DNA from: a virus
Lineage: Duplodnaviria > Heunggongvirae > Uroviricota > Caudoviricetes
Direction: 5' to 3' (one strand)
Length of the DNA stretch: 37,272 nt
IMG/VR virus record: IMGVR_UViG_2917403263_000004
Coordinates: 1-37,272 of that record
Below the pieces are notes generated by a model. The model worked only from the letters and a program-made list of their open reading frames with translations, did not search any database and was not told where the DNA came from. A program made the translations under genes and the position numbers. Of this stretch, positions 3,930 to 37,272 are shown piece after piece. Positions within the stretch are counted from its first letter, which is position 1. Every line of letters starts with the position of its first letter.

Positions 3930-4498
3930 TCTGCCTTGCCCACCTGAAATGCGCGAATTTCTGCGAGATTATTCAGTTTAGTCAGTGTGTTTTTCATCTC
4001 CCGCTGGCGCAGATAAATCTCATTGTTGCGGGTAACCTGTGCCTGAACCATTGCCGTCAGCAGTTCGTCCAGTTGCTGCACGGAGAGTTTCACCTGGCGG
4101 TTGTTCGCGTCGTTCCATGTCATAACGCTTCGTGCCGTGTCAGATTTTGCCAGCATCACCACCGGAGACAATCTGTCCACTGAAACAGGGCCGGCATCCC
4201 AGATTCGCTTTTTCCATTCGAATGTGAACGACCGCGCTTCCTGTTCTGTGCGCCATGCTTCAATTTCCCGACGCTTGGCTGTTTTTGCTGCTTCCAGTAT
4301 TTCCGGTGTCACAGTGAACGGAGCTATCTCCCCCCATTTACCGCTTTGCAGTTCCTGCCAGATTTTCTGGCCTGTTGGCGCCGTATCATCTGCCGTCGCT
4401 GTATACGGCAGTGCTTCGCCCATTCCCTCGAGCAGTACGTCACAGTCAATTGCACCACTTTCGATATAACGGGCGTTTTCGATTTTTTTTATTTTCAT
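3926..4498 (-). CDS. Tail fibre assembly / chaperone protein (cassette 2)
   Basis: 190 aa immediately downstream of tail fibre 2. Size and position are typical of Tfa/gpG-type fibre chaperones. AGGTGAT RBS. Confidence 0.55.
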   Translation of the reverse strand: MKIKKIENARYIESGAIDCDVLLEGMGEALPYTATADDTAPTGQKIWQELQSGKWGEIAPFTVTPEILEAAKTAKRREIEAWRTEQEARSFTFEWKKRIWDAGPVSVDRLSPVVMLAKSDTARSVMTWNDANNRQVKLSVQQLDELLTAMVQAQVTRNNEIYLRQREMKNTLTKLNNLAEIRAFQVGKAE

Positions 4499-4548
4499 AA
4501 ATCACCTATGCTGTACGTATAAACAAACCAATCATGACACCGAACGTA

Positions 4549-6555
4549 TCAGCCGATCCCATCATGTCGCCAGACAATGCCCGGTACCGTTCCCGGCAAA
4601 CCTGCTCCTGAATCACGAAAATAAGCAGATACGTTGCCGTCGTATACGCCGGCCACGTTACTGGTGAAATGGCCCTTAAATTCAACCGCGCTAAGACGCG
4701 AGCCAGGGTAATAATAACCCCGCATTATCCGGCGATTCTGGTCTGAAGAGTCACTTCCTCTGTATGCGGCCAGCACCAGACTGCCTGTGCCGTACCAGGC
4801 GTCTGTGGCTCCCGGAGCAATGCCTGACAGAAGATCGATAACGTTCTGAGTGGTAAATTTCAGTGATTCCCAGCCGATGAGATAGCCATTTCCACTTGTC
4901 CAGTAGCGGTTGTGATAAATATTGCCGTTAATGCCATAGAAAGTAATGACCTTTACTGTATGACGCGGGTTCGGCACTCCATACTCTGACTCAACCCAGC
5001 GAATACGAACCATTCCTTTGAACAGCACGTCCGGTATAATTTTATTGCTGCCGTCAACAAGATATTCTCCCGGTTCTGCCTTCCTTACCCACGCAAGAAA
5101 ATCATTTTCTGAGTTAAACCTGATGACCTCGTCAGGGAGAAAGATATGACCAAAGCCGAACGCGCCAGGTATAGCCAGGCGGTCTGCCGTGCGGTCATGA
5201 ATGTCACCCTGCGGCTCCAGTGTGGCAGCTTTTCCAAGCTCAAGGATCGTGTGCATGTCTGCCAGTGTTTCCTGCATCAGCAGAGTGCGCGCCATTTCTG
5301 ACAGTGTGGAAAGCGAAGCATTCCCTTCCGTATCAAAGCACAATAATTTGTCTGCCCGCGCTTTCAAATTGCTGATGGCGGTTAACACGTCACTGAGAGG
5401 TTGCTTGCCTGCCAGCGCGTTGGTGACTGTTGTTGCAAAGTTCGGGTCATTGCCCAGCGCCGCCGCCAGTTCGTTCAGCGTGTCCAGGGCTTCGGGAGAT
5501 GAATCCACCAGTGCAGCGAGCAGTTTGCGGACAAACGCCGCATTTGCGATTTCTGTCCCCGTGGCATCATCAGGCGGTGTCGGGGTTTTCGGAGCGCCGG
5601 TAAAGACCGGACTGTACAGGGTGGCTCTGGCGTTGATTAACGTTAAGAAGTACGCCTCATTTGTCTTCAGGTTATCCCAGCCAGTCAGATAACCACCGCT
5701 GAGAGGCCAGTAACGGTTGTAATAAACATCTCCGTTAACGGTGTATAAAATAATGGCTTTTGCCATATGTTGCGGTTCTGGTGGATTGCGGTTCGCCTCC
5801 AGAAACCGGATATTAATTACACCACAGTAGCCACCGGGTAACACACCATTGGCCCCCTGTACAGAATACTCTCCGGGCGTTGCCTGCTTGACCCATGCTA
5901 GGAGGTCTTTTTCTGTATCAAACCGGATAAGCTCGCCTGGCAGAAACATGTGACCAAAACCAAATGCGCCCGGTATCGCCAGCCGGCCTTCCGTGCGGTC
6001 GTAAATATCACTCTGCGGCTCCATTGTGGCGGCATTTTTCAGTCCCAGATTATCACGGGATTCCTGTTGCGCCTCTTCACCTTCTGCCGCAATTTCTGAC
6101 AGGTGGTTAGCCGTTTTCAGCATTGTTTTCAGTTCCGGATAAATATCCATCTGCCAGCTCTGTGGGGGAACCGTGATTTGTGCAGCCTGAGCCATACCAC
6201 TGTAAGTGATTGCAAAATTACGAAGAAGAGTTTCCCCCACATGTTTGTGGTGAACAGGAGTTTTTATTACACCGCATAGCGTGCCACTTGCCTGGTGAAC
6301 AAGACAAATCCAGTCATAACTGAATTCGGCGTCTTCAGTGACTGCACCGCTACATACAATGCTGTTTGGGGTCAGTTGTCCGTAGGTGAGTTTGTTTACG
6401 GTATAAGTAATTTTTTCCGGTGGAATAATATTATCTTCCGGGCTGGGGTCGCGATTCATTAGTGCAAATACGATGGCATCCGGCCGGGCAGGTAAATTGC
6501 CGGCAATGCATTTTGCAATCCATTTTTCAAATGCTTTCGTTAATAATGCGCTCAT
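4549..6555 (-). CDS. Tail fibre protein 2 (receptor-binding fibre with internal tandem domain repeat)
   Basis: 668 aa. N-terminal about 150 aa homologous to the N-terminus of fibre 1 (PARPD..VFA, EF.Y.WI.L, G.LC motifs). Contains the classic fibre motif DTLNELAAALGNDPNFATTVTNALAGKQP. Two diverged copies of a domain of about 130 aa (aa 165-297 and 433-566). Confidence 0.7.
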   Translation of the reverse strand: MSALLTKAFEKWIAKCIAGNLPARPDAIVFALMNRDPSPEDNIIPPEKITYTVNKLTYGQLTPNSIVCSGAVTEDAEFSYDWICLVHQASGTLCGVIKTPVHHKHVGETLLRNFAITYSGMAQAAQITVPPQSWQMDIYPELKTMLKTANHLSEIAAEGEEAQQESRDNLGLKNAATMEPQSDIYDRTEGRLAIPGAFGFGHMFLPGELIRFDTEKDLLAWVKQATPGEYSVQGANGVLPGGYCGVINIRFLEANRNPPEPQHMAKAIILYTVNGDVYYNRYWPLSGGYLTGWDNLKTNEAYFLTLINARATLYSPVFTGAPKTPTPPDDATGTEIANAAFVRKLLAALVDSSPEALDTLNELAAALGNDPNFATTVTNALAGKQPLSDVLTAISNLKARADKLLCFDTEGNASLSTLSEMARTLLMQETLADMHTILELGKAATLEPQGDIHDRTADRLAIPGAFGFGHIFLPDEVIRFNSENDFLAWVRKAEPGEYLVDGSNKIIPDVLFKGMVRIRWVESEYGVPNPRHTVKVITFYGINGNIYHNRYWTSGNGYLIGWESLKFTTQNVIDLLSGIAPGATDAWYGTGSLVLAAYRGSDSSDQNRRIMRGYYYPGSRLSAVEFKGHFTSNVAGVYDGNVSAYFRDSGAGLPGTVPGIVWRHDGIG

Positions 6556-20613: not shown

Positions 20614-22401
20614 ATGGCTTATTCTGATGAAGTTATTGCCGCAGCAAAATCACTCTATCTGAAAAGGCACACCCCAAAAGAAATACAAAAGAAGCTCGGA
20701 CTGAACAGTCCGCGAATTGTTTATTATTGGGCGACAAAGTTTGAGTGGTACACACAGCTTAATACTGAAGGCGTGGAGGATGTTATCGCCCGTCGTCTCG
20801 CTGTACTGGCGGAGCGTGACCATAAAACGCCGGAAGAACACGATGAACTCGATCGCCTGATTGGCCACCACGTCAAACTGATGTCGGTCAGAAACAAGCA
20901 CACGGAGCGAATGGCTGAGATTGCACGAATGGGTGCGGACATTCCCCAGCCTGGTCGTTATGGAAAAGAAGAACGCGGAGAAAAAGGTGCAGGTAAGAAA
21001 GAGCGCCCCCGTAAAGCTAATGACGTTTCCGGACTGACTGCTGAAAGTTTTGAGCCGTTTACCAAAAAACTGTTCGCTTATCAGTTGCGCCTGCGTGAAA
21101 ACAAATTCCGCCGTGTACGCAACCTGCTTAAATCCCGCCAGATTGGGGCGACGTATTACTTCGCGTTTGAGGCGTTTGAAGATGCGGCATTAACCGGCGA
21201 CACACAGATATTTTTATCGGCATCAAAACGTCAGGCCGAAGTGTTCCGCACCTATATCGTTAAGATTGCACAAACAGAGTTTGGCATTCCCATTAAAGGC
21301 AATCCGGTTAAGTTAAGTAATCTGGCTGAACTGTATTTTCTGGCGACCAACAGTAACACAGCGCAGTCAAACAGCGGCCACCTGTATATTGATGAATACC
21401 TGTGGATCCCCGGTTTTCGCCGTCTCAATGAAGTGGCATCAGGGATGGCCACCCATAAACACTGGCGCATTACCTATTTCTCCACGCCGTCATCCAAAAC
21501 ACACCAGGGTTACCCGTTCTGGTCTGGCGATGAATGGCGCAAAGGCGATCCGAAACGAAAAGGGGTTGAGTTTCCGTCCTTTGATGAGCTGCGCGATGGT
21601 GGGCGTGAATGTCCGGATGGTCAGTGGCGCTATGTGGTTACGCTGGAAGATGCCATTGCCGGCGGCTTTAACCTTGCTGACATCAACGAGCTGCGCGAGC
21701 GATACAACGAAACAGCGTTCAATATGCTGTTTATGTGTGTGTTTGTGGATGACAAAGAGAGCGTCTTTAAATTCGATGATCTTGTGCGTTGTGGTGTTGA
21801 TGTCAGTACGTGGGAGGATTTTCACCCGGAAGATCCCATGCCATTTGGTAACCGTGAGGTTTGGGGCGGCTTTGACCCTGCGCGCTCCGGCGATAACGCC
21901 ACATTTGTTGTGCTGGCACCGCCGCTGGTTGCGGCAGAACGATTCCGCGTGCTGGAAAAACACCACTGGCGCAGCATGTCATTCCAGTTTATGGCAGAGC
22001 GTATCCGCAGCATTAAGGCACGCTATAACATGACGTTTATCGGCATTGACGTCACCGGTCTTGGCTACGGTGTCTTTGAACTGGTTCAGGGATTTGCCCG
22101 CCGTGAAACAGTGGCCATTCATTACAGCGTGGAATCCAAAAACCGTCTGGTGATGAAGATGCTGGATCTGATTTACGCCAACCGTATTGAGTGGGATGAG
22201 GAAGCCACGGATATTCCGGCATCGTTCCTGGCCATTCGTCAGGAATCCACCAACAGCGGCAATAAAGTCACTTTCACCGCCGAACGTAGCGAAGAAACCG
22301 GGCACTCTGACATCTTCTTTGCCATAGCTCATGCCGCAAGTAATGAACCCCTGAACTATAAGCACAAGCGCAAATCAACATGGATCCTGTCAGATGAGTA
22401 A
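20614..22401 (+). CDS. Terminase large (ATPase) subunit (gpP-like)
   Basis: 595 aa (P2 gpP is about 590 aa). Divergent from O and followed by the portal gene with an 8-nt overlap. Confidence 0.9.
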   Translation: MAYSDEVIAAAKSLYLKRHTPKEIQKKLGLNSPRIVYYWATKFEWYTQLNTEGVEDVIARRLAVLAERDHKTPEEHDELDRLIGHHVKLMSVRNKHTERMAEIARMGADIPQPGRYGKEERGEKGAGKKERPRKANDVSGLTAESFEPFTKKLFAYQLRLRENKFRRVRNLLKSRQIGATYYFAFEAFEDAALTGDTQIFLSASKRQAEVFRTYIVKIAQTEFGIPIKGNPVKLSNLAELYFLATNSNTAQSNSGHLYIDEYLWIPGFRRLNEVASGMATHKHWRITYFSTPSSKTHQGYPFWSGDEWRKGDPKRKGVEFPSFDELRDGGRECPDGQWRYVVTLEDAIAGGFNLADINELRERYNETAFNMLFMCVFVDDKESVFKFDDLVRCGVDVSTWEDFHPEDPMPFGNREVWGGFDPARSGDNATFVVLAPPLVAAERFRVLEKHHWRSMSFQFMAERIRSIKARYNMTFIGIDVTGLGYGVFELVQGFARRETVAIHYSVESKNRLVMKMLDLIYANRIEWDEEATDIPASFLAIRQESTNSGNKVTFTAERSEETGHSDIFFAIAHAASNEPLNYKHKRKSTWILSDE

Positions 22402-23428
22402 AAAGAAAAAATCCCCCGTGTTACACGATGGCGTGGCAAAAAAAACAGCCAGCAAAATGACGTTTATTGAATTTGGTGACCCGGAACCGGTCGCTGCATG
22501 GGGCTGTTATTACGGCTCGCTCTGGGATGGTTATAACGGCTGGTACACGCCGCCCATTGAGCGCATGGATCTCGCCATGTTGGCCAATATCGCACCGTAT
22601 CACGGCGCGGTACTGCGTGCGCGCGTCAATATGATTATGCAGGGTTTTCGTGGGGGTGGTGGTATGACACACGCCGCCATGGCGGCAGCGGTGACCAATC
22701 TGCTGATATTCGGGGATATGGGACTGCTTAAAGTGCGCAATGGTTTCGGGCGGGTGGTGCGCCTGCATACGTTGCCTTCTCTGTACCTGCGGCGTAACAA
22801 CGAGGGTGGCACGGTGATTGTGCAGGCGGCACTGGAAGATCTCGTTTACCCGCCAGGCGAAGTGGTGTTCGTGGCCATTTATGACCCGCAACAGCAGGTT
22901 TACGGTGTCCCGGATTATATTCACGGGATGGAATCTGCCATGCTGAATGTGGATGCCACCCGCTTTCGCCGCAAGTATTACAAGAACGGCGCACATCTGG
23001 GTTATATCCTGTATTCCACTGACCCGGACATGGATCCCGATCTCGAGGCGGAATTCCGTAAAAAGATAGAGGCGTCAAAAGGGGCGGGCAATTTTAAATC
23101 CATGTTTATCAATATACCTGGCGGAGACAAAGAAGGCGTTAAGGTGATCCCTATCGGGGATTCAGGTACAAAAGATGAGTTCCTGAATATAAAAACCATC
23201 AGTGCCCAGGATCAGCTCGTTGCGCACCGTTTTCCACCCGGACTTGCCGGCATCATTCCCGCAAATACGGCCGGGCTTGGTGACCCACTGAAATCCCGCG
23301 AGGCATATTACAGGGATGAGGTTATCCCGATGCGCCGCCTGATTATGGAGGGGATCAACAGCGACCCGGATATCAGACGACTGGGGGAGGTGAAATTTAT
23401 TCTTGATTTTGATGAACCCATGGAGTGA
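22394..23428 (+). CDS. Portal protein (gpQ-like)
   Basis: 344 aa (P2 gpQ is 344 aa). Follows the terminase large subunit gene. Confidence 0.85.
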   Translation: MSKKKKSPVLHDGVAKKTASKMTFIEFGDPEPVAAWGCYYGSLWDGYNGWYTPPIERMDLAMLANIAPYHGAVLRARVNMIMQGFRGGGGMTHAAMAAAVTNLLIFGDMGLLKVRNGFGRVVRLHTLPSLYLRRNNEGGTVIVQAALEDLVYPPGEVVFVAIYDPQQQVYGVPDYIHGMESAMLNVDATRFRRKYYKNGAHLGYILYSTDPDMDPDLEAEFRKKIEASKGAGNFKSMFINIPGGDKEGVKVIPIGDSGTKDEFLNIKTISAQDQLVAHRFPPGLAGIIPANTAGLGDPLKSREAYYRDEVIPMRRLIMEGINSDPDIRRLGEVKFILDFDEPME

Positions 23429-23493
23429 TGTGCGGTATGAGGAAAGAGCGGGTAAAATCGGCGGCAGTAAAACGCTGTTCCGGGAGGTGGAAA

Positions 23494-23751
23494 ATGCGCA
23501 GACAAAAAGCGCGATGTCATTGCTGTGGTGCACATGCGGTGATTGAGAAAACAGCCTGGAAAACCGATCAGTTTGCTGATGTGTATTACCGTTGCACCCG
23601 TCTCGAGTGCGGACATACCTGGGTGATGAATCTGACCTACTCGCACACACTGGTGCCCAGCGGGCTGGAGAATGGTGTGTTAAAGCTGTTGATTGAGCGG
23701 ATGCGCCCGGAAGAAAAACAAATGGCTCTGGAGTTGTTGCAGGCCGGATAG
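23494..23751 (+). CDS. Ogr/Delta-family zinc-finger late-gene activator
   Basis: 85 aa from ATG 23494 (GGGAGGTGG RBS): MRRQKARCHCCGAHAVIEK...YYRCTRLECGHTW. Cys pairs resemble the Ogr zinc finger. The track ORF begins upstream at 23425. Confidence 0.6.
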   Translation: MRRQKARCHCCGAHAVIEKTAWKTDQFADVYYRCTRLECGHTWVMNLTYSHTLVPSGLENGVLKLLIERMRPEEKQMALELLQAG

Positions 23752-23773
23752 CTGACGCGCTTCGCTTGTCCAA

Positions 23774-23820
23774 CCCGGAACGGGCGCACAAAGAATTTGC
23801 GCACCCGTTCCGGGTTTTCT
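23774..23820 (+). terminator. Rho-independent terminator after the Q-ogr unit
   Basis: Roughly 13-bp stem CCCGGAACGGGCGC...GCGCACCCGTTCCGGG followed by TTTTCTT. The convergent Rrf2-like gene stop overlaps the T-run. Confidence 0.55.
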
Positions 23821-24176
23821 TATTCAATGGCAGACAACTGATAATTTGTGTCTTCCTGCAGGCTGGTTAAAGAAATATTATCCAGTGCAGCCAGAATAAC
23901 GTGCTGTGTATATAATCCGGAACATTTCATTGCCCGGACAATATCACCAACACTGTAATTTTCTTTTGTCGGGATATATCCACCACCCGGGCCGCGTGTG
24001 GCTTTTACCAGGCTACTTTCCCGTAAATATCTGAATATTTGCTCCAGATATGACAGTGAAACGGTTTCTTTGCTTAATTGCCGGAGTGAGATTGGCTTTC
24101 CGGTGTACTGTTTCACAAATTTAATCATTACCATAACTGCAACTGATGCACGCTGGCTTCCGGAATTATCTTTCAT
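23820..24176 (-). CDS. Rrf2-family winged-helix transcriptional regulator (short form without Fe-S cysteine cluster)
   Basis: Contains SLSYLEQIFRYLRESSLVKATRGPGGGY, the Rrf2 (IscR/NsrR-like) signature. Start set at ATG 24176 (GGAAG RBS), giving 118 aa. Confidence 0.55.
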   Translation of the reverse strand: MKDNSGSQRASVAVMVMIKFVKQYTGKPISLRQLSKETVSLSYLEQIFRYLRESSLVKATRGPGGGYIPTKENYSVGDIVRAMKCSGLYTQHVILAALDNISLTSLQEDTNYQLSAIE

Positions 24177-24190
24177 CGTGATTACTTCCA

Positions 24191-24466
24191 TTAATGGCAT
24201 AAATTGATGGAGTGGGTCAGTGAATAAAGAGGCATTACATTCCATCCCTTAGAGCGCCAGCTGTCTGCAACATCTTTACTCCTTGTTATTGCTGGTATTC
24301 CGATGCCGTTATTTACATGCATCCATGCCACTGGCTCTGCTTCCAGTGATGCAAGTGCGATTAACATATTGTGATCGTCTTCATCAAGACCGAACGGGAT
24401 GTCTTCGCGCCACGATTTAAACTTTGTGATTTTACGTTGTAGCCATTCTTTGGTAATGGTGGACAT
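24191..24466 (-). CDS. Hypothetical protein (91 aa)
   Basis: ORF in an operon-like array with 3-12 nt spacing. No recognisable motif. Confidence 0.4.
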   Translation of the reverse strand: MSTITKEWLQRKITKFKSWREDIPFGLDEDDHNMLIALASLEAEPVAWMHVNNGIGIPAITRSKDVADSWRSKGWNVMPLYSLTHSINLCH

Positions 24467-24468
24467 GG

Positions 24469-24666
24469 TTACTCCTGTTTTATTGGTCTGATACTGTTCA
24501 GAAGTAAGCGTCGCCGCATATTTGGCGCGCCCCAGCGGTAGCCAGTTTTTTTGTCGTAGGATTCAGAACGTCCGACAACCCAGGATGTTTTAGTTGAATG
24601 CAATTTCAAACGCTTTTCGCCATTCCTGGTGATAACAATTCCTGTATGAGTTTTTATCGCGCTCAT
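24469..24666 (-). CDS. Hypothetical protein (65 aa)
   Basis: Basic small ORF. ATGA overlap with the upstream Ea22-like gene. Confidence 0.4.
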   Translation of the reverse strand: MSAIKTHTGIVITRNGEKRLKLHSTKTSWVVGRSESYDKKTGYRWGAPNMRRRLLLNSIRPIKQE

Positions 24667-25256
24667 TTCGCAACACCTTTGCGAAGTTGGGCGGCAATCA
24701 ATTGGAGATATAGCGCGGATGTGCGATGATATTCCGCTGCTATCGGCGCCTCTTTCTCGCTGCGCTCCGCAAGCTGGTTTAACTCCGTGATGGCTATTTC
24801 CACACCCCGTGCCCGCACTATATTCTGGAAGGCGTCGGTGGCTGGCGTATCTGGCATGAGTGGTGATTCATCAGCAGGCGAGTACTCATCAGAAATGTCG
24901 GGCTGCTCCCCATCAAATACATAGCAACTGCCCCTGATAAACAGCTTCATTGCGGCATTCTCCGCTGCCAGCTCCGTGAAATTAGCCTCCAGCTCTGCAA
25001 TGCGTTTGCTTTGGGCTTCTCGTTCATCCAACAGAGCCCGCACTACTTCAGGGTTGAAAGCTGCGATATAACGAGCGTTGTTCTCTGCGTTTTTCTGTCC
25101 GTCAAAGCCGGGCCATTTGATAACGTCTTCACATCGTTTATCACCGGGCGTATGCACCGCATACGTACCAGTACCCGTCGAAATAAATGCGACCCATTCG
25201 CCCTGTGTTGCCTGTTTTGCTAACTCACGCAGTGCCTGATAGTTGATTTCGCTCAT
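24663..25256 (-). CDS. Ead/Ea22-like protein (lambdoid early-region accessory protein family)
   Basis: N-terminus MSEINYQALRELAKQATQGEW resembles the conserved Ea22-like N-terminus found in lambdoid prophages. 197 aa. Confidence 0.5.
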   Translation of the reverse strand: MSEINYQALRELAKQATQGEWVAFISTGTGTYAVHTPGDKRCEDVIKWPGFDGQKNAENNARYIAAFNPEVVRALLDEREAQSKRIAELEANFTELAAENAAMKLFIRGSCYVFDGEQPDISDEYSPADESPLMPDTPATDAFQNIVRARGVEIAITELNQLAERSEKEAPIAAEYHRTSALYLQLIAAQLRKGVAK

Positions 25257-25319
25257 TAAGTCGGTCTCCTTGTTTATGTTCTGAGGTGGAGATCAGGGCG
25301 AACTCGCCCTGACGTTGTG

Positions 25320-25631
25320 TTATTCGGGGAATAACGCCCTGATATTTCCGGCCATCTGACTGGTTATCTGTGCGGTTGGCACTGGCTGTGACACGGGGCG
25401 TTCTGTCCTGGTTTGTGTCACGGATAACGCCTCATCGTCAGCCCATGCAGCCAGTCGGTAAGCCTCTGCTGGATTCATTTTCAGAAGTGCCAGCCCGGCC
25501 AGAAAAGCCACGCGTTGGCCGCTTTTGCGGGCTTCTGGTGTAAGGCTGTCCAGCCAGGCGCATGCTTCGCTTTCGTTCTTGACGGCCGCAGGCTTCAGAT
25601 AGAAACTTATCCGTCTGGTTGGTGTCGTCAT
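25320..25631 (-). CDS. parR: ParR-like centromere-binding adaptor protein
   Basis: 103 aa from ATG 25631 (AAGGAG RBS, 4 nt after the parM stop). RRISFYLKPAAV...GQRVAFLAGLALL...NIRALFP parallels R1 ParR (RRTIAFKLNPDV...NRAALTAGLALY...ILRSLFP, recalled from memory). Confidence 0.6.
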   Translation of the reverse strand: MTTPTRRISFYLKPAAVKNESEACAWLDSLTPEARKSGQRVAFLAGLALLKMNPAEAYRLAAWADDEALSVTQTRTERPVSQPVPTAQITSQMAGNIRALFPE

Positions 25632-25635
25632 TGGT

Positions 25636-26595
25636 TTACTCCTTGTCCATTGCGTACAGCCCATTAACCAGAGCAAACTGTGGCACCCCATCCGCGATGA
25701 AAGTCGCATTAACTCCGCAGGCTTCGCGGATAGCGGGTGCCACAATCTCCGCCCCGCCACCGACAACCATCACCCGCCCGTAACCCGAAAAACCCGCCAG
25801 CGCGCGGATCACGCGTTGTTTCAGTGTTTCCTCCTTTTCACGAATAACCGCCATCAGGCTGCCGTAATGCGCGTCATTGTGGATGTGCTGGCGCAGCCAG
25901 GCTTCATCATGGCGATGTTCGATAATGGTATTGGCGATGTGGTGACTGGTGCGCATACCGTTAGTGGCCATCACCGACAGTACGGCATCGGCCATCAGAG
26001 AAACGCCTACGTGTGGATCGCAAAACACCTGGCTGATACCTGCCAGTTGCCCCTGAACCTTTGCCACATCCAGCGTGGTTCCGCCCAAATCCACAATCAG
26101 CAGGGATTCAAACGGACTCATGTCAGCCAGTGCCTTAAAGCCAGCCGGAATGGATTCAGGCATAACCCGTACGTTACGGATAGTGAATGCTTCGCTGTTC
26201 TGGTACTCCACCGGGCGCATGACGTTCGCTTTTTTGCGGTTGATGTTGGCCATGTCCGGCTGTGCGTTTGTATCGAAATACTCGCTCAGTGGCAGGGTGA
26301 CAACCACATCCACTTCCTGTGGTGGGATGCCTGATTTGACCAGCGCGTGATGAATGGCAATGACATTCACATCACTGTACTGATATTGCGTGTCGGTCGT
26401 CTGGACAAAGCGATCGCTGACCGAATCAAAACCATAGCGCACACCATCAAGCATGTAGTTCGCGGGCTGCGTGCCACCGAACGGCGCAGACCATTCCGAC
26501 TTGAAGCTGTTCGGGCTGATGGCGTTGCGGCGTTCGCCGTTCTCAGTCCATGCCAGCTTGATGTTGGTGGAGCCGTCGTCGATACAAATTTTCAT
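25636..26595 (-). CDS. parM: ParM/StbA-family actin-like plasmid segregation ATPase
   Basis: 319 aa. N-terminus MKICIDDGSTNIKLAW...ISPNSFKSEW...QYSDVNVIAIHHALVKSGIP closely parallels R1 ParM (MLVFIDDGSTNIKLQW...ISPNSFKREW...[20 protein letters not shown], recalled from memory). Confidence 0.85.
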   Translation of the reverse strand: MKICIDDGSTNIKLAWTENGERRNAISPNSFKSEWSAPFGGTQPANYMLDGVRYGFDSVSDRFVQTTDTQYQYSDVNVIAIHHALVKSGIPPQEVDVVVTLPLSEYFDTNAQPDMANINRKKANVMRPVEYQNSEAFTIRNVRVMPESIPAGFKALADMSPFESLLIVDLGGTTLDVAKVQGQLAGISQVFCDPHVGVSLMADAVLSVMATNGMRTSHHIANTIIEHRHDEAWLRQHIHNDAHYGSLMAVIREKEETLKQRVIRALAGFSGYGRVMVVGGGAEIVAPAIREACGVNATFIADGVPQFALVNGLYAMDKE

Positions 26596-26623
26596 GTCGA
26601 TTTTCCTTATGTTGATTAATTAA

Positions 26624-26738
26624 CCGTTTACGGGATTTTTAAATCCCGCTTTCGCCTGTTTTGTGCGCGCTTCATATATCGCGGCGCGTTTTTTGCTCAT
26701 TTACGGGTTTTGTGAATCCCGTTTCTGTCTGTTTTTTG
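26624..26738. repeat. parC-like centromere: two roughly 42-bp direct repeats, each containing an 18-bp palindrome
   Basis: CCGTTTACGGGATTTTTAAATCCCGCTTTCGCCTGTTTTGTG and TCATTTACGGGTTTTGTGAATCCCGTTTCTGTCTGTTTTTTG. Palindromes at 26631..26648 and 26704..26721, 73 bp centre to centre, immediately upstream of parM. Confidence 0.55.
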
Positions 26739-26846
26739 TTTCCACTGGTCAGGCTACCCCGCAGCAGGTCTGCTTTGCGGCGGGCGCGTTCAGTGGTTTC
26801 ACTGATTCTCTGTGCGTGCTCTGCGTCACGGATGGCGCGCAGCATG

Positions 26847-29326
26847 TCAGAAAGCACGGTAACAGGGGTTTTCATGGTGTTCTGGTCCTGCTGAAGTGTG
26901 GATGCCAGGCGTGCGGCGGCTTCGGGGTCTCGATGCCCCCAGCTGTTCCAGATAGCTGGCGACCGGGTTATGGCGGATCTCCGTGCTGCTTACGCCGTGA
27001 TTACGGCTCAGGCGCTGCCAGAGCTGCGTGATTCGGCTGTCCGGGCGGGTATCCGGTTTGCGTACAATTTCAAATCCCTGCGGTGCAATGATGCTGCCGT
27101 CAACGTACAGACTGCCGCCCCGTAACAGGTGCTGCATCTGCTGTTCACCGATATGCAGGCCGAGAGATTCAGCAGACTCCCGCCATTCTTTAGCGAGTAA
27201 CTCATGGTTATCAGGCAAAGGCCACGGTGTTGGCCGTTCTTTCGGCTGTTCTGTCCCGTTGTTGTCCGTTTCCTGTACATGGGGACAGTTATTGCCACGA
27301 GTCCAAGGGGCGGCAGGGCCGCCCTGAAGGTCAAAACCATTTTCGCGGGCGCTGTCTTCCGCTTCCGGTTTACGTCTTACCAGCTTCCAGTTATCCGGGT
27401 GCGTGCACACGCGGGAAGATTCCCCGATGAGCGGCGACCAGATCCCGTAAATCTGTACACTCTGCTCGCCGTAATCGTTCAGCTCATCTGCGAGGTCGTA
27501 GGCGGTGCGAATCAGGTAGTCTTTACGTGGAACAAGTACGCCGCCCTGTTTTTCAATGTAGGAGGCAAAACACCCGGCATCGGCGGCAGCGAGTACCGCA
27601 TCCATTGCGTCATCCTTCAGCCGTTGCGGGCCTTCCGGGTTGCGTGCCATCTGGCTGGCAAGGCGGCGCAGTTCACGCCATACCTGACGGGAGGGGATGC
27701 CAAAGAACTGGAACTGGCGGACCCGATGAAGGCGCGCCCAGCCGATGGCGCGCTCCACGCTCTCGGCCATTGATTTTCCGGTTTCGTGGTCAACGCGTGG
27801 TTTGCCCGTTTTCGGATCGATTCCATCCACGGCGCGGCTGTCCAGGTTTTTTCCGATGTAGGTGGCGATGTAGCTGGTTGGCGTGCCTTTGGAGCCGTCG
27901 ACGTACTCCACCTTAAAGCGCGGAGTAATATCATTGCCCAGCTCGTGGCGGTCTTCCTGAATGGCAATATCGCGGGTGATGGCCACGATGCTGTCGATTT
28001 CTTCCGGATGAGCAAAGACCATCATATGCCAGTGCACGGTGCCGTCATGGTGAGGCTCCACCGTGCGGATGCCATACCAGCGCAGGCCGTCGCGGTTCAG
28101 TTTTTGCGGACCGCCGCAAAAAACGTGTTAACCAGGTAATCGCTGGAGTCGCGCATGGTGGCCCCGTTCCATTTGGGATTCGGATGACCGTTCTCTGTTG
28201 TGGCGTGGTATTTTGACGGGCAGGTGACAGTCAGAAACACCGCTTTGTCGCCACGGGCTTCGGCCAGAAGTTCCAGTCCCTTCATGGTGGCCATCATTTC
28301 TGCCTTACGGTGAACCGGGTTACTTACTCCCGCGTAATACACTGTCTCGAGATCAATCGTGAAGCCGTCTTCGTTTTCCAGTTCGAAGCTCTTCAGGAAG
28401 TCGCGGGTTTTCTCGCGCTGTGCGCGAAACTCGCTTAACGCGTCCTGGCTCAGATAGGGTGATGTTTTTCTGGAAACCAGACAGGCGGCGCGGAGTTGTT
28501 CTTCTCTCCACTCGCAACGTAACAGCCACAGTTTGCGTTTCCACCAGTCCGCACAGGTCAGGCGGAGGATTGCGCCCGGCAGCAGTTCCGTATCCGGATC
28601 GCTCTTGTTCAGGGCTTCGTAATGTGGCGGCATGATGTGCAGGCGTAATGCGATACGAGCCAGCATCCGGTAAGCCTTCAACATTACATCCATGGTCAGC
28701 TCGCCATCTCTGGCACCAAAGCCATCGCAGAGTGTTTCGAAGGTGCTGCTGAACATCGCCGCGGTCATGGTGGCCAGCGTCTGTATCTGGTGCTTGTTGA
28801 GCTGCGGCAGGTAAAGCAAATCGTCCAGGCGTTCGCGCCCGGCAAGGGAGCGATAACCCGGTGTCAGCCAGCGTCCGTCAGTGCGATCCAGACGTTCGAA
28901 TATTTTGCGCAGGGTTCCGCGTGCATAGCGTTCCGCCTGCCAGCTCTTTTTGCCTTTCTGGCGATCGGCTTCCTGTTTTTTGCGCAGGAAGGAGAGGTGG
29001 CGAATAAGCGGATCGCGCAGATAGGACGGCAGCAGGCGCAGCGAGGCCATGGCTTCATCCACCGCGCCGCGTGCCTGCTTTCTGGCGTCTCCTGCCAGTG
29101 TGATGGTTTTGTCCTGTTTTTCCTGTGCGTCCAGGCTTTTATTAATCAGGTTGCCCAGCGGCGTGGCGGAGAACGCCGCATCAGCCATTTCCTGGCGGCG
29201 CTCGTTCTCTACCCGGTAGGCATCCAGCCAGGAGGAAAGCGCGGATTCAGGAGCGGGGATCCCCGTTCCTTCACGCCCCACTGCGTGGCGCGGTTGTTGC
29301 CAGTCCCTGATGTACTCTGCCGTCAT
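26847..29326 (-). pseudogene. Replication initiation protein gpA (rolling-circle HUH endonuclease), split by a 1-nt frameshift
   Basis: Two track ORFs (28097..29326 and 26847..28061) in different frames. The C-terminal part carries HUH and catalytic-Tyr motifs (GTVHWHMMVFAHPEE, YIATYIGK). The frames join if one A is added to the minus-strand A5 run (plus T5 at 28101..28105): ...FFAAVRKK-LNRDGLRWYGIRTVEPHHDG. Confidence 0.7.
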
Positions 29327-31492: not shown

Positions 31493-31903
31493 CTATGCGT
31501 TAAATACGGCACGTTGCGCGTCATCAATGAATACAGCTTGAGAGCGTTCTATCAGGCGGAGATTTGTCAGAAGCTCTGATTCCCTTATGGGGTGAGGAGT
31601 GATCAGGTATTTATCCTGTAATTCGGCGATAATGGTGTATCGCTGTAGCTCCGAGCCAATTGTGTAAATAAGGCGTCCGATGTTCGATAAATCCAGCCCG
31701 GCGACTGGTTGTGCTTTGAGAACCGCCAGTTCAGCACCCTGTTTTGCGATAATTTCGGCTGCTTCTGCCGTTACTCTTGCGACTATCAATGTGTGGGTTG
31801 CGACGTCCATGTGAGCATTGGCCACGGCTTTTTTCGCTACTTCGTTTTCTGTCTTTGAAATTTCTTTCAGTGCTCTGATAATACCTTCTTCTTTTGCGTG
31901 CAT
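31493..31903 (-). CDS. Hypothetical early protein (136 aa)
   Basis: ORF with ACGGAG RBS. Predicted helical. No family assigned. Confidence 0.45.
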   Translation of the reverse strand: MHAKEEGIIRALKEISKTENEVAKKAVANAHMDVATHTLIVARVTAEAAEIIAKQGAELAVLKAQPVAGLDLSNIGRLIYTIGSELQRYTIIAELQDKYLITPHPIRESELLTNLRLIERSQAVFIDDAQRAVFNA

Positions 31904-31997
31904 TTTTGTATCTCCGTTATTTACTTGTGCGAATACCTCCGCGAATGCGGATGGTTTTTACGTTTTTCTTATTTAATCTGGTGTTTTGTTTGTGCTG

Positions 31998-32099
31998 TTA
32001 CTTCCCAGTGAAAAAACGCTCAATCTTTTTCACTGAATGAATAATTCGCATAATGCCGATTGCGCAAAGCACCGAAATAATCAGGACAAGCCAGGACAT
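31998..32099 (-). CDS. Small hydrophobic peptide (33 aa)
   Basis: Manual translation MSWLVLIISVLCAIGIMRIIHSVKKIERFFTGK: one transmembrane-like helix plus a basic tail. Starts 8 nt after the upstream gene stop. Weak RBS. Confidence 0.3.
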   Translation of the reverse strand: MSWLVLIISVLCAIGIMRIIHSVKKIERFFTGK

Positions 32100-32107
32100 A
32101 AATATAC

Positions 32108-32350
32108 TCATGCAATATTCCCCAGTTTATACGGTTCAATATGCTCTCCGCATTCTGCGGCGCAGATAAGCTCTGAAAGCTCATTGAGCGCATCCAGATC
32201 ATCAGCGTAAAAAGCCACGTCATACAGACTCCGGATTGCCCTGGTCAATGAGTCACGGGCTGCACGTTCAGCATGAGCGCCTGATGCACTTAAGCGAAAA
32301 TAAAAACGCTCAAGTGCTTTGTTAATGAGAGTTTTATATTCTTTGCCCAT
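32108..32350 (-). CDS. Hypothetical protein (80 aa)
   Basis: ORF in the early operon. Confidence 0.4.
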   Translation of the reverse strand: MGKEYKTLINKALERFYFRLSASGAHAERAARDSLTRAIRSLYDVAFYADDLDALNELSELICAAECGEHIEPYKLGNIA

Positions 32351-32361
32351 CGCAACGCCTT

Positions 32362-32640
32362 TTAATCTGCTTTCTGGGTTTCTGCTTTTGAATCCATGCA
32401 GATAATTTCGATGTATGGTTCATCGCTATTAATCTGACGTGCCTTTTCAGCTTCGCTAATGACTTCGCGTACAGTCTGGTACGGAAGCTCCACGAACAGT
32501 TGTGCGCCGCTGTCCAAATAAATATGAGTGGTTGCGTTTTTTGTCTGGGCCACACCATTAATAGCTGATGCACGCAATAACAGTTCACCGCGAGAATCAA
32601 TAAAGCGGATAAATACACCTTGAGTATGGTCTTTAGTCAT
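32362..32640 (-). CDS. Hypothetical protein (about 92 aa)
   Basis: Start set at internal ATG 32640, 8 nt after the upstream stop; the track ORF extends to 32700. Confidence 0.4.
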   Translation of the reverse strand: MTKDHTQGVFIRFIDSRGELLLRASAINGVAQTKNATTHIYLDSGAQLFVELPYQTVREVISEAEKARQINSDEPYIEIICMDSKAETQKAD

Positions 32641-32650
32641 AAAGCACCTG

Positions 32651-33001
32651 TTATAAATCAGCCTGTTTAATAAAACTCTGTCCACGCAGCAGACGATCAA
32701 CCGTGCGAAGCGCTTCGTATAATGTGAAATCCTGCCCGAACTGATTGTCGCCGCTGCTCAGAGCAAAAATGCGGTTTCCGGTAAACGGATTGCGCGGGCA
32801 TTTGTGGACCACGATTCCAGCCTTCTCAATCAGCCAGGTGTGCTCTCCGATTTGTTTTACAGCGTGGTCATCCGGTGTTGCGTGTGTTTCGCTCAGGCTG
32901 TAGCGAGAGCTGCTGCGTGATGCACTGGTGGCGAAACGGTTAGCGTGGCGTTCCGCCCCGTTGCGGAAGCGTTGCTGTGAAAAATTACGTCGTTGCTTCA
33001 T
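32651..33001 (-). CDS. Hypothetical protein (about 116 aa)
   Basis: Start set at ATG 33001 (AGGAT RBS); the track ORF extends to 33049. Confidence 0.4.
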   Translation of the reverse strand: MKQRRNFSQQRFRNGAERHANRFATSASRSSSRYSLSETHATPDDHAVKQIGEHTWLIEKAGIVVHKCPRNPFTGNRIFALSSGDNQFGQDFTLYEALRTVDRLLRGQSFIKQADL

Positions 33002-33143
33002 ACAAAAATATCCTGCTGCTGTTGTTAGTTTGTGCCGGGTTTTAGCCATGCCCGGCGCATGGTTTTGTGGTATTTTTCCACCGCCCGCAGTCTTGAAGGG
33101 GCTGTAAAGGGCGCGTGTTCAACCAACCACAAAGGAATAAAAT

Positions 33144-33326
33144 ATGTCCTATGATAAAAAGGTTATTGATGCGCTAAATGCGGCAATTTCTGTATTAGAG
33201 AAAGCGCCGGTTAATCCTCCTAATAAAGGAGAGCCATCAAATACCATTCGTAAGCTTATGCACGAAGTGCGTAAGCTCACGTTGGAAAAATATCCTCAGG
33301 CAAGTACATGGACTTTCCCTGAGTGA
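33144..33326 (+). CDS. Hypothetical small protein (60 aa), opposite strand to the surrounding early genes
   Basis: AAGGA RBS 8 nt upstream of the ATG. Ends exactly where the convergent 154-aa minus-strand gene ends. Confidence 0.3.
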   Translation: MSYDKKVIDALNAAISVLEKAPVNPPNKGEPSNTIRKLMHEVRKLTLEKYPQASTWTFPE

Positions 33327-33791
33327 TTATTTAACTCCCGTGCCGGAGATTTTCTCTGGCACATTTCCGACCTCAATAACCATGTTGTCACTGCTTAAAA
33401 TTTGTCGATAAAGCTCAAAGATTTCTTTGGCGGGGAAACGGAGCGCAACGCCGTATATTGGTTCTAAAATCATTCCAATCGTTTCTTTGACACCATCTCG
33501 ACAAAAATGACCGTATTCATCATCAGGATGCAGGGTAACATTTTTCAAATCTTCGCCATTCTGAAGCTTTGATTTAAATGCCATCAGGTCAGCGAACGTT
33601 CTGTGTAATTCGTGGTAGTCAATGCTGATTTCAACCTGTGGTTTGCCCGGAAAAACCAGCAAAAGCTTCTGGTGTGGCTTTTCGTTTTTCAGGGTTTCCA
33701 GTCGTTCCAGTAGTGCTTTGTCTTCGTAGTTTGTCATTTCAAAGCCCCAGCCACAGCAATCATGCGTCTCGCTATTCTTTCGGGCGAGCAA
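33327..33791 (-). CDS. Hypothetical early protein (154 aa)
   Basis: Second gene of the early operon. No motif recognised. Confidence 0.45.
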   Translation of the reverse strand: MLARKNSETHDCCGWGFEMTNYEDKALLERLETLKNEKPHQKLLLVFPGKPQVEISIDYHELHRTFADLMAFKSKLQNGEDLKNVTLHPDDEYGHFCRDGVKETIGMILEPIYGVALRFPAKEIFELYRQILSSDNMVIEVGNVPEKISGTGVK

Positions 33792-33818
33792 AGAATACTT
33801 CGACGCTCTTGATGTTGT

Positions 33819-34346
33819 TTATGATAAATCGCTCTCGTGATCTCTGCGTTTTTCCAGTTTTGAACTTCTACCCATATAAACCCGTTTTCCGTTAACGGTC
33901 TGGCAATCTTCTTTGTCGACTGGGGCGAACTTTCTTTTCTGGCGGTCATACGTCCAGTAACTTTTCCAGTTGTGCCATTCTGGGGGTTCGCACTCTGGTA
34001 GCTCATCAGCCAACTTGTCCCACTCTTTGGCGTTAAACCACCATACGCCGTCTGAGTTTTCATCTTCTGGATTAGTGCGTGTTTTATGTCCTGGCATTTG
34101 TCCGCGAGCGACGGCAGTGCGAAGTGCCAGTTTTGTTAGCCCGACATACGCAGCGCCTTTTTCTAGGGAGCAAAGCCCGGCGATTGGTCCGTCCAGCCGC
34201 AAAGTTGCCCCCTTTTTGTAGGTGCGGCTTTGCTTGCTTTCCTGATGTTCATCATCGTTGGCGGCATCAGCGGAATCGCTAATACCGTCGCTTTTCTGGG
34301 GGTGTTGGGTGTCAGATAACTCTTTATCGGCAATGATGTCCCGCAT
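33819..34346 (-). CDS. Cox-like excisionase / early-promoter regulator with C-terminal extension
   Basis: First gene of the leftward early operon, divergent from C. HTH-like GAAYVGLTKLALRTAVARGQMPG followed by GVWWFNAKEWDKL, resembling P2 Cox (AVRRMIDKGKLP ... EYWVYLPAWNNGLK). 175 aa versus 91 aa for P2 Cox. Confidence 0.5.
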   Translation of the reverse strand: MRDIIADKELSDTQHPQKSDGISDSADAANDDEHQESKQSRTYKKGATLRLDGPIAGLCSLEKGAAYVGLTKLALRTAVARGQMPGHKTRTNPEDENSDGVWWFNAKEWDKLADELPECEPPEWHNWKSYWTYDRQKRKFAPVDKEDCQTVNGKRVYMGRSSKLEKRRDHESDLS

Positions 34347-34791: not shown

Positions 34792-34860
34792 CTTTACACA
34801 TTGAGCGGATTACATCTCGCAAGGAGTATTTAGTTAATTTATCCGTTGGATGGGCTAATC

Positions 34861-35854
34861 ATGTCGATTAAGCAACTCAAAGACGGACGTTATCAGGTCG
34901 ATGTCAGACCGCAGGGGGCGGAAGGAAAGCGGATTCGAAAAATCTTCGCCCTGAAATCAAAGGCTCAGGAGTTTGAGAAATATGTGTTGCAGAACTTCCA
35001 TGACAAGCCATGGCAGGCTAAGCCAGCTGATCAGCGGCGATTATCAGAGCTGCTTGATGCGTGGTGGATGCTTGACGGGCGTAATCAGGCTTACGGGGAT
35101 AGCTACAGGGTCAGGCTAGAGAAGGTTATTCGTGAAATGGGAGATCCTCGTGCCAGTCATATGACGCGAAAATTTATGCTCGAGTATCGGTCAGAGAAAT
35201 TACAGGCCGGATTAATGCCGTCCAGCATTAATCGTGATTTATGCGTTCTGTCTACCATGTTCACGGTGCTGATTGAAGCTGAGGTCTTTCACAATGCGAA
35301 CCCTGTACGCGGTATACGCAAACTGAAAGTTCAGAACACGGAAATGGCCTTTCTTTCTGATGATGAGATTGAACGGCTTCTTGAGCGACTGGAGGGGGGA
35401 TGCGCGTCGTGTTGCCATTCTGTGTCTTTCTACTGGTGCCCGGTGGAGTGAAGCATCGGAACTACGTGGAGAGCATATCGTTGGCAACCGGGTGACGTTT
35501 TTTAACACCAAAAACGGAAAATCCCGCTCAGTTCCTGTGGCGGATTCGGTTGTGCCTCTGATTAAAACCCGTCGGACGGGGTTGTTGTATCAGGTTAATT
35601 ATCTGGAGTTCCGGGAGATTCTTCAGGAGGTGAAACCGGATTTGCCGAAGGGGCAGGCTACGCATGTCATGCGTCATACATTTGCCACACACTTTATGAT
35701 GAATGGTGGAAATATTGTTACGTTACAACGAATCCTTGGGCACGCCACGATTCAGCAGACAATGACGTACGCTCATTTTTCGCCGGACTTCTTACAGGAC
35801 GCGATCAACTTTAATCCGTTGGCTGAAAGTGTCCATAAACTGTCCATCGATTAG
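34861..35854 (+). pseudogene. int: P2-type tyrosine integrase, frameshifted
   Basis: N-terminus MSIKQLKDGRYQVDV and C-terminal RHTFATHFMMNGGNIVTLQRILGHATIQQTMTYAHF parallel P2 Int. The reading frame shifts +1 at the G6 run 35394..35399 (track ORFs 34846..35451 and 35360..35854); a G5 run would restore ...LERLEG-DARRVAILCLSTGARW. Confidence 0.75.

Positions 35855-35979: not shown

Positions 35980-37272
<1,293 letters not shown>

Follow-up and report, generated by a model that had tools for sequence, protein, structure and literature searches.

In P2-like phages, the interval between the replication gene gpA and the portal gene gpQ is a published variable (defence) hotspot (Rousset 2022, PMC9122126; NAR 2026, PMC13586616), in which P2 itself carries old and tin (PMC9122126). 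An inhibitor of the old product has been reported from phage HK446: its gp27 (Oad2) binds directly to P2 OLD, relieves the toxicity of OLD and does away with the defence that OLD confers. Oad2 has P22 EaE as a relative, and some phages encode it as a fusion with HNH or Ead/Ea22 proteins (bioRxiv 10.64898/2026.07.10.737580). Arrangements with Rrf2 and Ogr and with Ea22 are already listed, without tests, in Table S5 of Rousset (PMC9122126). The hotspot, the catalogued arrangements with these Pfam domains and the Ea22 fusions of the Oad2/EaE family (the last from a preprint) are therefore all known. The latest P2/P4 census reported almost no anti-defence genes in P2-like prophages; only modelled families were searched in it, and Oad2 was not among the models.

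Here we describe an island of four leftward genes in this interval of the IMG/VR virus record IMGVR_UViG_2917403263_000004, analysed over its whole length of 37,272 nucleotides (hereafter the window). The genes encode a 197-amino-acid (aa) protein, two small proteins of 65 and 91 aa (orf65 and orf91) and a short Rrf2-family regulator (mini-Rrf2). An earlier, sequence-only reading of this DNA had placed four leftward genes, besides parMR, between the replication gene and the head-gene end of the genome, in the position equivalent to P2 tin/old. Both points were borne out: all four genes were found on the minus strand with family matches, and the island lies between replication gene A and portal gene Q, the hotspot interval of the two studies cited above.

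Our preferred reading, held tentatively and a little short of even confidence, is that the island is accessory cargo leaning to counter-defence and host modulation, and not an anti-phage system. What we consider new, as judged from comparisons of sequences and profiles, is that the ‘Ea22-like’ cargo in a P2-type hotspot is an Oad2-type module with swappable ends, that the neighbours of this fusion are a transplanted cassette of lambdoid ‘ea’ genes, and that the regulator is a shortened, cluster-less IscR head.

The 197-aa protein combines Ea22-type and EaE/Oad2-type modules

The 197-aa protein matches PF13935 (Ead_Ea22) with E=3.9e-26 (92.7 bits against a cut-off of 27) over its residues 2–104, covering profile positions 1–96 of 139 only, and phrog_368 with E=5e-40. 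The label ‘Ea22-like’, under which it had been listed, is correct for the N-terminal 85–96 residues only, whereas the remainder is an EaE/Oad2-like module. The C-terminal half matches proteins annotated as EaE, and BLASTP aligned the protein to Oad2 with 33% identity over 109 aa (E=8e-8). When a family profile of 31 sequences (A2), built without Oad2, was used for hhalign, residues 82–197 were placed onto Oad2 residues 52–174, reaching the C-terminus (98.85%, E=4e-17), and P22 EaE was matched as well (97.3%, E=2e-11). The motifs LEAxxxxLAAENAxxK, TPATDAF..VRAxG and the C-terminal AAQLRKG/QLRKG are common with Oad2, and the linker between them is poorly conserved. We interpret the protein as a fusion of an Ea22-type N-domain and an EaE/Oad2-like C-module (residues 82–197).

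An AlphaFold2 model (pLDDT 69) has the N-domain up to about residue 81, a long coiled-coil helix at 69–110, a disordered linker at 111–137 and a helical hairpin at 138–192, the linker being the least conserved segment across the family. A P88-like sibling prophage (L096) encodes in the same place (4001–4600, plus strand) a 199-aa Ea22/EaE fusion that is approximately 90% identical up to residue 118 and continues from there into an unrelated C-terminal hairpin, ending in ELRKGGSQ. Because the Ea22 anchor is kept while linker and hairpin vary or are swapped, the predicted arrangement of a conserved anchor and a swappable, fast-diverging binding module is as expected of a protein whose target is variable. 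Homologues of Oad2 are located immediately beside Ea22 genes in many lambdoid loci, and the lambdoid homologues of the C-module from the window are located in ea regions. No copy of this module with more than 75% identity was detected among 5.8 billion clustered proteins, a profile search of the PDB with the fusion returned generic coiled coils only, and among species-representative genomes one relative, of the N-terminal part only, was found in Salmonella. The product of mEp460 gene 32, labelled ‘EaE’ by RAST, was set aside as evidence, as only the coiled-coil motif is common to it and true EaE.

The regulator is a shortened IscR-type protein

Mini-Rrf2 matches PF02082 (Rrf2) with E=3.9e-13 (50.1 bits against a cut-off of 30; profile positions 2–87 of 132) and phrog_24072 with E=2e-47, and stays under the NCBIfam cut-offs for rrf2_super (52.9 vs 73.3 bits) and for the IscR equivalog (58.6 vs 207.6 bits). 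It is 32% identical to Escherichia coli IscR and aligns to residues 8–84 of the latter (4HF0), with the recognition helix SLSYLEQ (including Glu43) and the wing RGPGGGY (RGPxGGY) invariant. The sequence-only reading had seen an Rrf2-family regulator without the usual cysteine cluster, and the alignment agrees: the IscR region of approximately residues 86–117 is deleted, so that Cys92, Cys98, Cys104 and His107 are gone and the dimerisation helix, deprived of its first half, keeps its distal part (LAALDNISL) only. Mini-Rrf2 would thus be an IscR-type DNA-reading head without its sensor.

Near-identical copies of mini-Rrf2 were found only in Escherichia prophages. Beyond these, a 104-aa homologue (P0003) with 51% identity and the same truncated architecture is present in a different phage context, after a DnaC/IstB-like gene; the next relatives are cellular IscR proteins with approximately 45% identity over the winged helix only. 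The strict core pattern of the IscR type-2 site had no match in the window. The long type-2 consensus had one match with three mismatches, inside ogr (23560–23585; chance expectation 0.03), which we do not take as a binding site.

The island and its flanks form a three-way mosaic

The stretch from 22301 to 24481 of the window, with portal, ogr, mini-Rrf2 and orf91, is 97% identical to a prophage of E. coli E300010, and that from 25225 to 27000, with the start of the 197-aa gene, parR and parM, is 97% identical to P88_4B11. The middle stretch between 24481 and 25225 stands in place of 162 bp of E300010 and has its relatives, at both DNA and protein level, in the lambdoid phages HK106, PAS61, mEp460 and vB_EcoS-569R4 and in Stx phages. 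At the boundary of the 197-aa and 65-aa genes, a junction of 42 bp is 97.6% identical in several lambdoid phages, a typical linker at which such modules recombine. These breakpoints sustain the mosaic proposed by the sequence-only reading: as far as sequence identity can tell, island and flanks are a three-way mosaic with lambdoid-type genes in a P2-type backbone.

The ORFs of 65 and 91 aa had been described as having no recognisable motifs; this is true for Pfam and NCBIfam, but PHROG families and lambdoid homologues were found for both. The orf65 protein matches phrog_1226 (E=2e-31) and is modelled (pLDDT 86) as a five-stranded SH3/Tudor-like beta barrel, with no match in a profile search of the PDB. 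Its family is small (80 representatives among 1.84 billion proteins) and phage-borne; homologues are found beside EaE-labelled or Ea22-type genes in lambdoid phages and, in mEp460 and relatives, directly 3' of the RAST-labelled EaE gene that has only the coiled-coil motif in common with true EaE. Relatives of orf65 are occasionally fused behind helix-turn-helix (HTH) domains, for which there are weak hints only (YdaS/Cro-like, DUF977). The orf91 protein matches phrog_60 (E=7e-14) and phrog_660 (E=2e-12); over its residues 1–54 the identity with the P22 EaA N-terminus is 39%, and residues 36–81 recur with 76–80% identity in the interior of ‘Ea22’ and ‘DUF551’ proteins. It is a short member of the EaA-N/‘WLQRKI..IPFGLDE..PVAW’ module family, of which full-length relatives of 143 aa are encoded in sibling prophages; a 95-aa orthologue is present in L001. 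Both small proteins are parts of the module pool of lambdoid ea regions.

We therefore distinguish two probable sources of the island. The 197-aa fusion, orf65 and orf91 would make up a cassette of the kind present in lambdoid ‘ea’ early-left regions, and orf91 with mini-Rrf2 would make up a two-gene unit that other Escherichia prophages also carry by itself. The block with orf91 and mini-Rrf2 (24001–24500) has 42% G+C compared with 50–57% in its surroundings, which is consistent with a recent import from another source.

Variability of the hotspot among related prophages

As a sample of related prophages we used 80 IMG/VR loci with ParM at least 98% identical to that of the window, 61 of which have both anchors of the hotspot and were compared. 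The comparison of gene content across relatives, which the sequence-only reading had proposed, revealed a hypervariable slot with approximately 43 architectures, none of them shared with the window, and an interval from parR to portal of 1058–4262 bp (1891 bp in the window). Ea22-type genes are present in 18 of the 61 sibling loci, the unit of orf91, mini-Rrf2 and ogr in 7, and the complete four-gene combination in none; since the genes are so unevenly distributed, the alternative that they are conserved core genes of the lineage falls away, and the island is, by all appearances, non-core accessory cargo in a known hotspot. In 5426 complete E. coli genomes, the pair of orf91 and mini-Rrf2 was detected in 37 and the block of Ea22/EaE and orf65, at a coverage of at least 80%, in none.

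A frequent occupant of the same slot is a protein of approximately 110–125 aa (125 aa in L072 and 12 further sibling loci), which P88 encodes as gp19. By its sequence and by a note in the P88 annotation, its C-terminus resembles the N-terminal zinc-binding domain of ClpX (CSFCGK...YICDEC), and it might be a mimic of a ClpX adaptor.

Gene organisation and prophage context

The leftward series runs from gpA through parM, parR and the four island genes to a hairpin, followed by ogr and portal (Table 1).

Table 1. Genes and hairpins of the island and its surroundings (positions in the window)
Feature	Position	Strand	Remarks
197-aa Ea22/EaE fusion gene	24663–25256	-	PF13935 and phrog_368
orf65 (65 aa)	24469–24666	-	phrog_1226
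orf91 (91 aa)	24191–24466	-	phrog_60 and phrog_660
Mini-Rrf2/IscR-like gene	23820–24176	-	118 aa from M24 (longest ORF to 24245, 141 aa); PF02082, phrog_24072
Hairpin with 21-bp stem between convergent Rrf2-like and ogr genes	23772–23816	.	dG -39.7 kcal/mol, z=-7.2
GC-rich 9-bp hairpin between parR and fusion gene	25292–25313	-	dG -16.4 kcal/mol, z=-4.5
parR	25320–25631	-	Plasmid_stab_B E=4e-24
parM	25636–26595	-	StbA_N E=5e-82, ParM_N E=4e-68
Replication gene A (gpA)	26675–29326	-	
ogr/delta-type zinc-finger late activator	23494–23751	+	PF04606 E=2e-12
Portal (gene Q)	22394–23428	convergent with island	

The four island genes are packed in an operon-like manner: the stop of the 197-aa gene overlaps the start of orf65 (ATGA), orf65 and orf91 are two bases apart, 14 nt with a GGAAG inside separate the stop of orf91 from the likely start of mini-Rrf2, and a Shine-Dalgarno sequence is present 5' of every one of the four starts. 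Because of this packing and of the significant Pfam and PHROG matches, which every one of them has, we take the four ORFs to be genuine genes and not chance ORFs. The start of mini-Rrf2 is probably M24, since a GGAAG box is located 8 nt upstream, the PHROG profile begins there and the copies in databases have 119–123 aa.

The 21-bp hairpin has a terminator-like call and a 3' U-run on the plus strand; the leftward unit ends with it, and it serves ogr, which is transcribed rightwards, as an intrinsic terminator. The smaller hairpin between parR and the fusion gene is no clear terminator, because no U-run follows it. One weak promoter-like site lies inside orf91 (24456–24429). On its upstream side the hotspot is anchored by the conserved parMR, which is 96–97% identical in DNA to that of P88-type phages and probably belongs to the same transcription unit as the island. 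The downstream anchor, in the head-module type of the window, is ogr, which adjoins portal in 11 of 62 loci (the window counted in); no second copy of ogr was found within the window. Its place directly after portal differs from that in P2, where it is near the tail and int genes. Furthermore, a direct repeat of 39 nt occurs twice at 26627–26738 (79% identical copies, 73 nt apart), directly ahead of parM and in the 3'-terminal part of gpA; both copies hold the palindromic core CGGGATTT..AAATCCCG and may act as parC centromere and ParR operator.

By its matches, the window is a P88-like (Xuanwuvirus-type) prophage of the P2 family. Its parMR and gpA are 95–97% identical in DNA to those of P88, P88_4B11 and many E. 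coli prophages; the head module and the adjacent ogr are of a second type, which is found, for example, in the E. coli E300010 prophage, and differ in DNA from those of P88. The gpA gene is disrupted, with residues 1–413 in one frame, 407–859 in another and 853–940 back in the first, and the second-frame piece has an internal deletion of 150 bp relative to a 941-aa relative; it is either a pseudogene or the product of an assembly rich in indel errors. The integrase gene (34846–35854, plus strand) is split into the overlapping ORFs 34846–35451 and 35360–35854, which suggests a frameshift. No match to the 19-mer of P2 cos with up to three mismatches was found in the window.

The prophage is integrated beside serS, which forms the host flank (35980–37272, minus strand). 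The host is probably a non-coli Escherichia or a close relative, since this serS is only 90–95.7% identical to the copies in all 5426 complete E. coli genomes. An early region of lower G+C (31493–34346, minus strand), beside Cox-like and C-repressor-like genes, contains small ORFs (DUF4754, DUF4761 and proteins of 136, 112 and 154 aa), for which PADLOC returned weak generic HTH-type matches only and no defence system.

Discussion

According to the counter-defence reading, recombination of the lambdoid ea cassette with the unit of orf91 and mini-Rrf2 would have built the island in the gpA–portal hotspot. Its genes, at the distal end of the leftward gpA–parMR unit, would probably be co-expressed with parMR or with early transcripts, because the promoter/terminator scan found no convincing promoter or terminator inside the island before the 21-bp hairpin. 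The 197-aa protein would act as an inhibitor in the manner of Oad2/EaE, with a coiled coil and the capacity to bind other proteins; it may attach to an immune protein encoded by the host or by a prophage resident in it and block the activation of this protein; our best guess at the target is an OLD-family ATPase-TOPRIM nuclease, and the hypervariable linker and the swappable C-terminal hairpin would set the specificity. Mini-Rrf2 may sit on sites of the IscR type, or on half-sites, whether or not a signal is present, as it keeps the DNA-reading residues of IscR and cannot hold an Fe-S cluster.

A more far-reaching version, which we consider decidedly improbable, is that genes for counter-defence and for rewiring the host are also traded in the P2-family defence hotspot. 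In the window these would be a swappable Oad2-type inhibitor, anchored by Ea22 and directed at the OLD family, and a cluster-less mimic of IscR. The inhibitor would then be aimed at the very class of nucleases for which sibling P2-like prophages have genes in this slot (old, AbiL), and in lysogens the mimic would make some of the IscR regulon of the host unresponsive to signals.

It should be noted that a number of points weigh against a counter-defence role. An HK75 homologue which is 54% identical to Oad2 fails to inhibit P2 OLD (bioRxiv 10.64898/2026.07.10.737580); the target of the 197-aa protein, with 33% identity to Oad2, cannot be inferred from this relationship, and the function of Oad2 rests on a single preprint. 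As much of the dimerisation helix is missing, DNA binding of mini-Rrf2 seems uncertain. With regard to the timing of expression, the promoter scan of the region gave 3 promoter-like matches where 3.8 are expected from shuffles. Because gpA and int are disrupted the prophage looks defective, and its cargo may have left phage-level selection.

Further points against a counter-defence role speak at the same time for the best of the alternatives, namely an anti-phage defence or superinfection-exclusion module, as yet undescribed, that the prophage would express. The same slot holds AbiLi/AbiLii (E=3e-27) in siblings L015, L061 and L086, IetA/IetS (E=4e-89 and 7e-41) in L083 and L091, and in L052 and L062 a PIN-like protein paired with an RmrA-like one (E=3e-35 for the latter). 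AbiLi/AbiLii is an OLD-like pair of ATPase and TOPRIM proteins. The location is that of P2 old and tin (PMC9122126), and many hotspot genes of unknown function turn out to be defensive, six out of eight such P4 loci having proved so when tested (PMC13586616). On the other hand, the search for defence systems that the sequence-only reading had called for gave nothing: with PADLOC-DB v2 none of the four proteins, nor parMR or ogr, had a significant match, the only hit for the island proteins being HamC for orf91 at E=0.065, and three of the four had no NCBIfam match either. Pfam and NCBIfam revealed in these proteins no domain of a nuclease, ATPase, NAD-ase, membrane or toxin-like kind. In addition, the three ea-type modules are apparently separately shuffled pieces of lambdoid early operons, which are made by the infecting phage, and the sole characterised homologue, Oad2, is an anti-defence protein. 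The anti-phage or exclusion role implied by the sequence-only reading is thus not supported, and we consider a defence module unlikely.

Quite unlikely, in our view, is a role of the genes in lysis-lysogeny decisions or development similar to that of Ea22 of lambda and Stx phages, with the Rrf2-like protein as a phage-internal regulator. Both Ea22 proteins are reported to be pro-lysogenic (PMC7093339, PMC10834534), the 197-aa protein belongs to PF13935 and the island is positioned at the end of the early/replication unit. However, lambda Ea22 aligns with the 197-aa protein over residues 1–21 only and its studied coiled-coil and C-terminal domains do not align, and we rejected a transfer of its phenotype for this reason. 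Moreover, the P2-type C/Cox switch is unrelated to the switch of lambda, and the genes are missing from most sibling prophages and are therefore not required for a developmental switch.

We give about the same low credence to the view that the island is inert recombination debris, made up of fragments of ea genes and of an iscR-like gene that stayed behind at a junction prone to recombination in a decaying prophage. The disrupted gpA and int would fit with this, as would orf91, which is shorter than its relatives of 143 and 317 aa, the truncated IscR-type protein, and the truncated Ea22 pseudogenes in the same slot of relatives. Nevertheless, none of the four ORFs is disrupted, each has a ribosome-binding site and their stops and starts are coupled, though neighbouring core genes are broken; the mini-Rrf2 protein is 99–100% conserved in seven IMG/VR loci and the DNA of orf91 and mini-Rrf2 is 95–96% identical in the 37 E. 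coli genomes; the 51% homologue has the same truncated build in an unrelated phage context; and the fold of orf65 is predicted with confidence. Lastly, a regulator-effector or toxin-antitoxin-like pair of orf91 and mini-Rrf2, independent of the insertion of Ea22 and orf65, has only a very slim chance, for although the two genes always occur together (in the seven loci and 37 genomes), with a gap of 14 nt and within one low-GC block, the N-domain of orf91 looks like a common adaptor-like module of EaA-type proteins and not a known toxin, neither toxin-antitoxin families nor PADLOC gave a match, and P0003 follows a DnaC/IstB-like gene, its context being read as that upstream gene only.

Cargo of P2/P4 hotspots is usually taken as defence. 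Should the Oad2-type module inhibit an immune nuclease, both sides of the arms race would be represented in these hotspots, and cargo labelled ‘unknown’ should not be presumed defensive. The Ea22 N-domain would in that case look like an anchor for recombination, itself conserved, to which one specificity module or another can be joined, and the mini-IscR a compact case of a phage borrowing the DNA-reading head of a host regulator without its sensor.

Comparison with known systems

With the P2 old/tin locus, the island shares the interval, the hypervariability and the presence of defence systems in siblings; the lineage of the window differs by parMR inserted after gpA, and its cargo has no recognisable defence part and has one part resembling an anti-defence protein. 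Oad2 and P22 EaE are homologous to the C-terminal 116 residues of the fusion and have likewise a coiled-coil motif, a variable central linker and the status of an accessory gene in a shuffled region. However, the module of the window is only 33% identical and is fused behind an Ea22 N-domain, and Oad2 is encoded in a lambdoid recombination/early-left locus, whereas the module of the window is in a P2-type gpA–portal hotspot downstream of parMR.

Lambda Ea22 and PF13935 have the N-terminal signature MSEINxQALRE, a coiled coil after it and a three-part modular build in common with the 197-aa protein, but the C-terminal domain of lambda Ea22 solved by NMR is unrelated to that of the window protein and the coiled coils do not align either. 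E. coli IscR (4HF0/4HF1) shares with mini-Rrf2 the winged helix, SLSYLEQ and the wing RGPGGGY; it has 162 aa compared with 118 aa, and mini-Rrf2 differs from it in lacking the cluster ligands, being phage-borne and having a very narrow distribution. Finally, the lambdoid ‘ea’/exo-xis regions (P22 eaA–eaI, mEp460 gp27–gp32) draw on the same pool of modules (Ea22-N, EaE-C, orf65-type and EaA-N-type), with the same ATGA-type coupling of genes and the same conserved junctions (42 bp, 97.6%), whereas in the window these modules have moved to a backbone of the P2 family and are reduced to three genes.

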